Positions 39,443-59,680 of a stretch of DNA of 64,000 bases are shown here, one piece after another (the stretch's first letter is position 1; each line of letters opens with the position of its first letter). Below the pieces are notes generated by a model. It was not told the DNA's origin. It saw nothing but the letters and a program-made list of their open reading frames with translations, and did no database searches. Both the position numbers and the translations under genes were made by a program. Source of the DNA: Escherichia coli (GTDB lineage: Bacteria; Pseudomonadota; Gammaproteobacteria; Enterobacterales; Enterobacteriaceae); NCBI RefSeq assembly GCF_001677475.2, contig NZ_CP015229.1; one strand, written 5' to 3'.

Positions 39443-39457
39443 TCGCGTTATACGGCA

Positions 39458-39492
39458 AAAGCCGATGTCATAGCAGACATCGGCTTTTTTAT
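39458..39492. terminator. Bidirectional rho-independent terminator shared by convergent argS and flhE
   Basis: AAAAGCCGATGTC-ATAGCAG-ACATCGGCTTTTTT within the 52-bp gap. Confidence 0.8.
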
Positions 39493-50274: not shown

Positions 50275-53166
<2,892 letters not shown>

Positions 53167-53170
<4 letters not shown>

Positions 53171-54054
53171 GCTTCCTCGGTTGTCGTCTGTTGTTGCGGA
53201 TTTTTCACCGCACGCACATGCTCTTCCAGTTCAATAAACGATGGACGTTCGCTGGAATAGAGCGTTTTGCGACCAAACTCAACGGCGATAGGCGGTGCGT
53301 AACCGTTCAGATTAGAAAGCAGTGTGACTTTGACGCATTGCATCATTTTGCTGGTTTCGGCGCTTTTCTGACGTAAAACACTCGCTAATGGGGAAATAAA
53401 TCCGTAAGCCAATAAAATACCGAGGAAAGTCCCCACCATCGCATGTGCGATAAGCGCCCCCAGCTCGGCGGCAGGACGATCGGCTGAACCTAACGCGTGA
53501 ACGACCCCCATCACAGCCGCGACAATACCAAACGCCGGAAGTGAGTCCCCGACCAGCGCCAGACTGTTCGCCGGGACTTCTGCCTCGCTTTCGTGCGTCT
53601 CAATCTCTTCATCCATCAGGGCTTCGATTTCGAAGGTGTTCATGTGACCGCTGATAATCAGGCGCAGATAATCGACGATAAAATCAAGCATGACGCTATC
53701 CGCGAGGATGCGTGGGTAGCTGGCGAAGATCTCGCTCTCACGGGGATTTTCAATATCACGTTCCAGCGAAAACATCCCCATCTGCCGCGATTTCGCCATC
53801 AACCGATAAAGCAGAGCCAGCAGATCCATATACATTGCTTTGGTGTATTTGGAGCGACGAAACAGCAACGGCAGCGCCTTCAGCGTGCCTTTAATCGCTT
53901 TGCCATTATTGCCGACGATAAACGACCCAATCCCTGCACCGGCAATAATCACCAGTTCAGCGGGTTGATAGAGTGCTCCAAGGCTTCCACCGGTCATCAA
54001 ATAACCGCCGAAAACTGTACCGAGAACAACCAGGTAACCTAATAAGATAAGCAC
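53167..54054 (-). CDS. motA: Flagellar motor stator protein MotA; GTG start
   Basis: 295 aa from (GTG)[16 protein letters not shown]. Confidence 0.96.
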
Positions 54055-54122
54055 GACATCATCCTTCCACTGTTGACCATGACAGGATGTTCAGTCGTCA
54101 GGCGTTAACGCGCGATTGGGGC

Positions 54123-54155
54123 AAAAAAAAGCAGCGGTACGTCGTTACCGCTGCT
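54123..54155 (-). terminator. Rho-independent terminator downstream of flhC
   Basis: CAGCGGTAACGACGTACCGCTG hairpin followed by a run of 8 U on the minus strand. Confidence 0.7.
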
Positions 54156-54180
54156 GGAATGTTGCGCCACACCGTATCAG

Positions 54181-54759
54181 TTAAACAGCCTGTACTCTCT
54201 GTTCATCCAGCAGTTGTGGGATAATATCGGCACGATTCTGGGAAAGTTTACGTCTTTTTACTGCCCGGGATGGCGGTTGACATAAGCTGCAGGCAAAGCT
54301 GCCAACAGGCTGGTGAGCGTGGGTAATAAAATTGCCGCCGCAGCAGTTGCAGCTGGAAAGTTGCAGTAATCCACTTTCAACAAACCGCACCAATGTCCAG
54401 GCACGGGTTAATGCCAGCAGCGGTCCTTCTTTTGCTTGCGGGCACTGTTCAAGGTATAAACGGTAAGCTTTGATCACCGCATCGACGCCATTACACAAAC
54501 CGGTTTTCAGTAAAAACTGCCATGCATTACAGAACATCGAAGCATGAACATTTTGTTCCCAGGTCATAAACCAGTCGGTTGAGAATGGCAGCATGCCTTT
54601 CGGCGGTGGGCTTCCGCGCAGTTCTTTATAAAGTTTTATCAGGCGTCCGCGACTTAACTGTGTTTCGCTTTCCAACATCTGCAAACGAGCGCCCAGGGTG
54701 ATCAATTCCATTGCCAGCTGAATATCCCGCGCTTCCTGAACAATGCTTTTTTCACTCAT
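54181..54759 (-). CDS. flhC: Flagellar master regulator subunit FlhC
   Basis: 192 aa; Zn-binding cysteines ([24 protein letters not shown]). Confidence 0.96.
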
Positions 54760-54761
54760 GA

Positions 54762-55112
54762 TCAGGCCCTTTTCTTGCGCAGCGCTTCTTCAGGCTGATT
54801 AACATCATTCAGCAAGCGTGTTGAGAGCATGATGCCGGTATGAATTTGCTGGAGATCGTCAACGCGGGAATCTTGCGTCAACTGAGTAATCGTCTGGTGG
54901 CTGTCAAAACGGAAGTGACAAACCAGTTGATTGGTTTCTGCCAGCTTAACCATTTGCGGAAGAGTCAGTGCCGCTAACGTTGTCGCCATTTCTTCATTTA
55001 TGCCGAGACGAAACATTGCGGACGCTTTGTCCTGAACAATCAGACGCTGTGCAAGTAGTAAATATGACAAGTTGATGTCATAAATGTGTTTCAGCAACTC
55101 GGAGGTATGCAT
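54762..55112 (-). CDS. flhD: Flagellar master regulator subunit FlhD
   Basis: 116 aa from [24 protein letters not shown]; the six-frame ORF adds 3 codons. Confidence 0.95.
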
Positions 55113-55374
55113 TATTCCCACCCAGAATAACCAACTTTATTTTTATGCGGTCTCACCGCACCCCGTGATGTCGCCGGGAAGCCCCGGTAAAAAATAATTA
55201 GCATTAGAATAGTTGCGATAAGCTGCAATAGGCAGAGCCCCTTTTTGGGATTTAATAAGTCCTTACAAATAGAAGGGGTTCTTTACACTTATCTAAGATT
55301 TTTCCTAAATCGACGCAACTTTACTCGTCACTACACGCACATACAACGGAGGGGGGCTGCGATTTTCAATAATG

Positions 55375-55390
55375 TGTGATGCAGATCACA
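55375..55390. promoter_or_regulatory. CRP binding site in the flhDC class I promoter
   Basis: TGTGATGCAGATCACA, a perfect TGTGA-N6-TCACA palindrome about 265 bp upstream of the flhD ATG, consistent with the long flhD leader. Confidence 0.8.
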
Positions 55391-55892
55391 CAAAACGCTC
55401 AATTACTTAACATAAATGTATAAGTCATACTTTTGTTTTGGGTGTATTTCAATCTGTTAAAAAGTTTTTCGCGACGCTAGCAAGCAAAAATGAAACAGGA
55501 ATAATCGAAATGGGATGTTGCGCACAGTTAAAATAACTCACCGTAAATAATCATCTGCTATAAATAATTGCTTTAATGCAATACCAGATAAGCTATTTTT
55601 AAACAGACACTTACCGCACAACAAACTAATTAAATACAAAGAAAGGCAACAATCAACTTAATGTTAATAAAATGTTTTACATATATTAACCACTTGTTTA
55701 ATATGGAGAATCAGTACATTATTTTCTTATAATTACAGTTGAAATCATATGATCACCGAGAGTGATTGATTAATTGTATTTACTAATAATCAGACTAATA
55801 TTTACCTGTTTGACTGAGTTGGGATTGCGTCGATTCTCCATTAGGAGTAAAGCTTTAATGTCACCTGAAGTTCACAGAATAAGGAACAGGTT

Positions 55893-56321
55893 ATGAGCTA
55901 TAGCAATATTCTTGTCGCTGTTGCGGTTACACCGGAAAGTCAGCAACTGCTGGCAAAAGCAGTATCTATCGCCAGGCCAGTAAAGGGACACATCAGTTTA
56001 ATTACTCTCGCTTCCGACCCGGAAATGTACAATCAATTAGCTGCGCCGATGCTTGAAGATTTACGCAGCGTGATGCAGGAAGAAACGCAAAGCTTTCTTG
56101 ATAAGTTAATTCAGGATGCGGGGTATCCCGTTGACAAGACGTTTATTGCCTACGGTGAGTTAAGCGAACATATTCTGGAAGTTTGTCGCAAATATCATTT
56201 CGATTTGGTGATTTGCGGTAATCACAATCACAGTTTCTTTTCGCGAGCATCCTGCTCGGCGAAAAGAGTGATTGCCTCTAGTGAGGTCGATGTGCTGTTA
56301 GTTCCACTTACGGGAGATTAA
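55893..56321 (+). CDS. uspC: Universal stress protein C
   Basis: 142 aa; MSYSNILVAVAVTPESQQLLAKAVSIARP. Confidence 0.92.
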   Translation: MSYSNILVAVAVTPESQQLLAKAVSIARPVKGHISLITLASDPEMYNQLAAPMLEDLRSVMQEETQSFLDKLIQDAGYPVDKTFIAYGELSEHILEVCRKYHFDLVICGNHNHSFFSRASCSAKRVIASSEVDVLLVPLTGD

Positions 56322-56327
56322 CCGCTC

Positions 56328-59680
<3,353 letters not shown>

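Follow-up and report, generated by a model that had tools for sequence, protein, structure and literature searches.

Introduction

Laboratory K-12 stocks of Escherichia coli gain IS1 or IS5 insertions upstream of flhDC, with raised motility (PMC5100188, PMC1174868, PMC11237407), as the first-pass annotation of the DNA considered here had also stated. The MG1655 reference is a case of this kind, and on this point the annotation was accurate: IS1H, 768 bp long and carrying insA5/insB5, sits between flhD and uspC. A TTAG duplication has been described at about -311 to -319 (PMC1174868) and an IS5 has been described 516 bp upstream of the start codon (PMC11237407), and an insertion at -476 is said in PMC5100188, citing Fahrner and Berg, to be the most distal of those published as activating. 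Here we compare with these alleles the interval between flhD and uspC in a 64-kb stretch of E. coli DNA, referred to below as the window.

Results

Organization of the locus

The flhD-uspC interval of the window runs unbroken from 55113 to 55892 and measures 780 bp from ATG to ATG; the length of 771 bp assigned to it earlier was incorrect and arose from an in-frame GTG upstream of the flhD ATG, at 55121, taken as the start in the ORF list. Both flagellar genes and uspC are intact (Table 1). The FlhD protein is the same as in K-12, with two silent differences at the nucleotide level, FlhC differs from K-12 FlhC solely by E110K and P176R, and UspC carries three substitutions relative to its K-12 counterpart; otsA and otsB come next after uspC. 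By blast, the whole window is collinear with positions 1,922,342-1,987,860 of MG1655 (NC_000913.3) at about 98% identity, and, the flhDC IS1 aside, the sole structural difference lies at 39446-39484. At this place, which lies between the argS stop codon and flhE, MG1655 has about 770 bp carrying yecV and yecT. In the window, a segment of about 39 bp that includes a terminator-like hairpin (AAAAGCCGATGTC...GACATCGGCTTTTTT) replaces this stretch, so that yecT is absent from the source strain.

Table 1. Features of the flhDC-uspC region in the window, with the basis of each assignment.
Feature	Position	Strand	Basis
flhC CDS, intact, 192 aa	54181-54759	-	ORF list
flhD CDS, intact, 116 aa, ATG at 55112	54762-55112	-	ORF list
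AsflhD antisense RNA homolog (predicted)	55091-55311	+	coordinates moved over from the MG1655 annotation
flhD 5' leader, 199 nt, 1-bp insertion relative to K-12	55113-55311	-	start site by homology
sigma-70 flhDC promoter (predicted): -35 TTGTAT 55341-55346, 17-bp spacer, -10 TAAAGT 55318-55323	55318-55346	-	read relative to the homology-mapped start
cAMP-CRP site (predicted) TGTGATGCAGATCACA, perfect half-sites, -64 to -79, centre -71.5	55375-55390		pattern search and homology-mapped start
empty IS5 hotspot target TTAA, -96 to -99	55407-55410		descriptions in PMC5100188, PMC1174868
empty IS1H target CATAAATG	55411-55418		alignment with MG1655, blast overlap
empty IS5 target CTAG, -166 to -169	55477-55480		site cited in PMC5100188
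AT-rich upstream tract, GC 0.21-0.30	55500-55800		GC profile
empty IS5 target CTAA (flhD strand TTAG), -315 to -318	55626-55629		descriptions in PMC1174868, PMC11237407
empty IS5-type target CTAA, -472 to -475	55783-55786		near the distal insertion at -476, PMC5100188 citing Fahrner and Berg
uspC CDS, intact, 142 aa, divergent from flhD	55893-56321	+	ORF list

Absence of insertion sequences

The central claim of the first-pass annotation, that no IS element interrupts this interval, is borne out by comparison with MG1655, with which the interval is collinear except for IS1H and one of the two 8-bp target copies. With these taken out, the MG1655 interval comes to 779 bp; over its full length it is 96.2% identical to the window, and one 1-bp indel is the only gap in the alignment. 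A BLASTN comparison against IS1 and MG1655, which had been proposed as the check, was run and gave no IS1 similarity, with the MG1655 flanks abutting at an empty site. On either side of the MG1655 insertion the blast alignment gives one segment, and the two share exactly 8 bp of the window, 55411-55418. Their common octamer, CATAAATG, flanks IS1H on both sides in MG1655; its occurrence as a single copy in the window marks an intact empty site.

Searches for IS sequence beyond this junction gave the same picture. With MG1655 IS1H as query, blastn against the whole 64-kb window returned only chance-level matches of at most 25 nt. Neither the IS1 terminal-repeat pattern nor an IS5 pattern built on what we take to be the IS5 end sequence had a match in the interval, and both occurred at chance-level counts in the rest of the window. 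The longest open reading frames of the interval encode 40 and 44 aa, in agreement with the claim that no transposase gene lies there. A repeat search of the interval found inverted repeats that are short and imperfect (at most 22 nt, 77% complementary), none of which frames an element, and comparison with MG1655 and with the outgroup Escherichia strain SCPM-O-B-8794 found no residual tandem duplication of 4, 8 or 9 bp in it. The terminal repeats or target duplication that the annotation had named as evidence against its own reading were thus looked for in the interval, and none were found. An Rfam scan of 53000-57000, with E up to 1, matched no family.

Of the features that define the MG1655-type IS1-interrupted class, the 768-bp IS1, its terminal inverted repeats and insA/insB are all missing, and in place of the 8-9 bp target duplication of that class there is one copy of CATAAATG. 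Of those that define the IS5-activated class, there is no 1.2-kb IS5 and no IS5 end, and the YTAR targets are single and empty.

Start site, insertion targets and AT-rich tract

Coordinates for AsflhD and the flhD start site have been published (PMC9600491). In MG1655, where asflhD is annotated at 1978176-1978395, the flhD start site coincides with the last (3') base of the antisense gene, 1978395, which maps by homology to 55311 in the window. Under this mapping, the published IS5 targets coincide with YTAR tetranucleotides at -96 to -99, -166 to -169 and -315 to -318, and the published -476 insertion adjoins CTAA at -472 to -475; the mapping is supported by this fit of distances. The published insertion positions are themselves secondary descriptions, in PMC5100188 and PMC1174868, which we then checked on the sequence. 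The earlier placement of the insertion hotspot within an AT-rich tract at about 55540-55760 has to be amended: the best-known hotspot for IS5 and IS1 (-96 to -108) is outside that tract, at 55407-55418, directly upstream of the CRP site, and the further sites (-166, about -315 and about -476) run through 55477-55786.

The AT-rich tract itself is as the annotation had noticed it: its GC is 0.21-0.30 between 55500 and 55800, the genes on either side having about 0.5, and this composition would be compatible with H-NS binding. The description of the promoter as 'H-NS-repressible' can be kept insofar as one paper gives repression of this promoter by H-NS in vitro, together with higher promoter expression in an hns mutant (PMC2094087), but it has to be set against the positive control that H-NS exerts on motility (PMC2984483).

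Promoter, leader and CRP site

The hexamers of the sigma-70 promoter in Table 1 are those that we infer from the sequence relative to the homology-mapped start. A consensus promoter scan gave only three plus-strand candidates, at chance frequency; the flhDC promoter falls below its threshold and was missed, so that the assignment was made by homology. As a poor match to sigma-70 promoters, TTGTAT-N17-TAAAGT would fit with CRP dependence. The leader comes to 199 nt because of the 1-bp insertion. It includes a patch at 55231-55280 (about +32 to +81) with about nine substitutions and the 1-bp insertion relative to K-12, which is common to strain 746; the outgroup strain SCPM-O-B-8794 differs from the window there too.

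The CRP palindrome picked out in the first pass, TGTGATGCAGATCACA, is real and unique, being the sole TGTGA-N6-TCACA in the 64 kb, where 0.04 would be expected by chance. Its centre lies 270.5 bp from the flhD ATG, and a start 198-199 nt upstream of the ATG would put it at -71.5, as would befit a class I CRP-dependent sigma-70 promoter. The 50-mer around the site is found exactly in 3906 of 5351 genomes and thus represents the majority E. coli allele, and the K-12 site is imperfect, one of its half-sites reading CGTGA. Outside E. coli, nine out of nine outgroup loci with both genes carry the TGTGA-N6-TCACA palindrome in perfect form, at distances of 269.5-283.5 bp from the ATG. Since perfect half-sites are the majority form in E. 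coli and are present in all the outgroups, the CGTGA of K-12 is a derived minority form, and the window has what characterizes the ancestral type, a consensus CRP site located upstream of the flhD ATG by about 270-283 bp.

A single-nucleotide difference at 55321, T in the window and hence A on the flhD strand at position -10, gives the hexamer TAAAGT, where both K-12 and SCPM-O-B-8794 have TACAGT. Complete E. coli genomes with an exact match to the core-promoter 50-mer of the window (55286-55335) number 347 of 5352, and those with an exact match to the K-12 version 4633 of 5378, which makes TAAAGT a minority allele whose share of the genomes is 6.5% at most. Each of the two hexamers agrees with TATAAT in four of six positions, so that any consequence for expression is uncertain. 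A search of the literature for natural variation in the flhDC promoter gave no relevant report.

Distribution and ancestral state

The view of the IS-free layout as ancestral finds good support in its distribution, both among E. coli genomes and across the outgroup genera. The region is present in 5421 of 5426 complete E. coli genomes. In 5271 of them 80% or more of it was counted in one place, a figure in which IS1-split copies are hidden, the search joining pieces up to 890 bp apart; the spacer is split into two places in up to 118 genomes and truncated in about 30 more. When 60 genomes were sampled at even steps down the ranking, the spacer was one collinear piece of 777-780 bp in 57, carried an IS1 in one and was truncated in two. 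By this sampled estimate, the spacer is uninterrupted in roughly 95% of the 5,426 genomes.

A separate query for the MG1655-type IS1 junction matched 89 of the 5,426 complete genomes, and the 40 of these 89 that were listed, with sizes of 4.5-4.66 Mb and the junction mostly at MG1655 coordinates, look like MG1655-derived laboratory strains. In the human isolate E. coli 19213 (NZ_CP135077.1, around 1905219-1905597), the junction query matched in two pieces about 300 bp apart, which suggests an IS1 at another position in the flhDC upstream region.

Outgroups were taken from one contig scan with a leader-plus-flhD pattern, which recovered one Escherichia locus, Salmonella and Citrobacter, and did not recover E. 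albertii or E. fergusonii. The Escherichia locus (NZ_JAATUR010000018.1, 'Escherichia coli strain SCPM-O-B-8794'), from a GTDB species representative labelled E. coli, has a 777-bp IS-free spacer. It is about 92% identical to the window (91.9% over 13 kb), a level at which it would be better placed in another Escherichia species, or in a cryptic clade of the genus, than in E. coli proper. In Salmonella enterica subsp. arizonae and in seven Citrobacter genomes, flhD and uspC are again divergent, and the spacers between them are 786-795 bp long, apart from one of 1001 bp, with GC of 0.35-0.37. A layout common to Escherichia, Salmonella and Citrobacter predates their split, and the adjacent, divergent flhD and uspC with an unbroken spacer of about 0.78-0.80 kb that define it are what the window has, at 780 bp.

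Source lineage

Among complete RefSeq E. coli genomes, the best match to positions 40000-64000 of the window is 98.7% identical over 24 kb, with the differences evenly spread, and the best match to the spacer among complete genomes is 99.6%. A draft assembly, GCA_019135775.1, located through an exact-sequence match of the FlhC variant, is 99.96% identical over 5,579 bp, spacer included, with two differences from the window, at 55610 and 55961. An independent draft at this level of identity argues for a real, under-sampled lineage and against an assembly artefact; judged by these comparisons, the source of the window is an E. coli lineage without a close relative among complete genomes.

Discussion

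We read this region as an ordinary, uninterrupted wild-type flhDC control region, shared with the divergent uspC, of a natural non-K-12 E. coli lineage, and assign to this reading, which none of the observations contradicts, a probability of about 0.95; an IS-free flhDC control region of this kind is an already known and well-described wild-type state. By homology to K-12, the weak sigma-70 promoter TTGTAT-N17-TAAAGT would fire at about 55311 and would depend on cAMP-CRP bound in class I geometry at the consensus site centred at -71.5. The 199-nt leader would be under post-transcriptional control by CsrA, several small RNAs and the antisense AsflhD, and the roughly 480 bp of AT-rich DNA upstream would be the binding place of many published repressors and nucleoid proteins. 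The same upstream DNA holds the IS1/IS5 targets used in laboratory K-12 stocks, all of them empty here. The start site, the hexamers, regulator binding and the expression level are all what we infer by homology to K-12.

Could the IS-free appearance be an artefact of assembly, an IS copy having been collapsed or skipped? IS copies often cause assembly trouble, and the source lineage has no close relative among complete genomes, the best match being the 98.7% over 24 kb given above. However, an unresolved IS normally breaks the contig and would not leave one flawless copy of the target, the 64 kb of the window are contiguous and collinear with MG1655, and an independent NCBI assembly, GCA_019135775.1, has the same IS-free spacer with one SNP; we consider such an artefact very improbable. 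What a consensus assembly such as this would leave invisible is an IS-bearing minority subpopulation, and mixed stocks with IS-carrying subpopulations are documented (PMC1174868, PMC11237407). It is likewise scarcely credible to us that an earlier IS was excised here, or persists as a degraded remnant, so that the interval would be reverted rather than ancestral. We found no support for this history, which is raised only since laboratory stocks gain and lose IS elements at this place (PMC5100188), and several observations speak against it: the sole indel relative to MG1655 is 1 bp and lies in the leader, the indels relative to the outgroup Escherichia spacer are just a few of single bases, no tandem duplication of 4, 8 or 9 bp and no IS-like segment is left over, and the spacer length agrees with that of Salmonella and Citrobacter. 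A precise excision would be traceless, yet it would be unparsimonious with about 95% of genomes being IS-free.

Another possibility is that the region, although IS-free, is not 'unactivated': the C-to-A change at -10 and the consensus CRP site would raise basal flhDC transcription, and the strain would be motile without an IS, as a natural counterpart of the activating point mutations of K-12. The rarity of the window 50-mer (347 of 5352 genomes), with the K-12 base being common to the outgroup SCPM-O-B-8794, could be taken in this sense. In 2015, Fahrner and Berg reportedly found activating changes of one base in the -10 element, in the spacer and in the CRP region, which would also favour it. 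In Keio strains, point mutations upstream of flhDC up-regulate motility genes (PMC11237407). Against this, the two hexamers are equal at four of six matches, the changed third position is weakly conserved, and the consensus CRP site, being the majority and ancestral allele, confers no special gain. We therefore hold natural activation of this promoter to be unlikely, and the narrower proposition, that TAAAGT combined with a consensus CRP site could make the flhDC promoter of this lineage intrinsically stronger than one with TACAGT, to be distinctly so. If it were true, the lineage would illustrate a natural point-mutation route to motility, and IS capture at the locus would have lower selective value.

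Returning to the reading of the region as an ordinary wild-type control region, E. coli by default has a flhDC-uspC spacer free of IS elements, and it is the MG1655 reference that is the exception. For annotation, this means intact flhDC with an unmodified control region, from which normal CRP-dependent and repressor control of motility would be expected, while all known IS capture sites remain available in the source strain. Those who use K-12 as the reference for the flhDC promoter should note that its CGTGA half-site is the derived minority form and that the lineage of the window, in turn, has a minority -10 hexamer.

Lastly, we compare the locus with the known alleles and related systems. 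Closest to the window are the IS-free K-12 stocks (for example BW25113 and poorly motile MG1655 isolates), which have the same genes, orientation and positions of promoter, CRP site and IS targets, with a spacer of 779 bp against 780 bp here and 96.2% identity, or about 30 differences in all. Among these differences, the CRP half-site is TGTGA in the window and CGTGA in K-12, the -10 hexamer is TAAAGT and TACAGT, respectively, and the leader of the window has the 1-bp insertion and the variable patch. The MG1655 reference (NC_000913.3) is homologous to the window in its flanks and target, but has the 768-bp IS1 and the 8-bp CATAAATG duplication about 108 bp upstream of the start site, neither of which is present in the window. 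The IS5-activated alleles (RP437, MC1000, and motile MG1655 and BW25113 isolates) have all four IS5 targets in common with the window; they carry IS5 at targets, whereas in the window all the targets are unoccupied and no IS5 end is found in the interval. Salmonella enterica and Citrobacter resemble the window in their divergent genes, in spacer length in all but one case and in the perfect CRP site, about 275-283 bp from the flhD ATG, and differ from it in the DNA between the leader/promoter and uspC, which is too diverged for blastn alignment.
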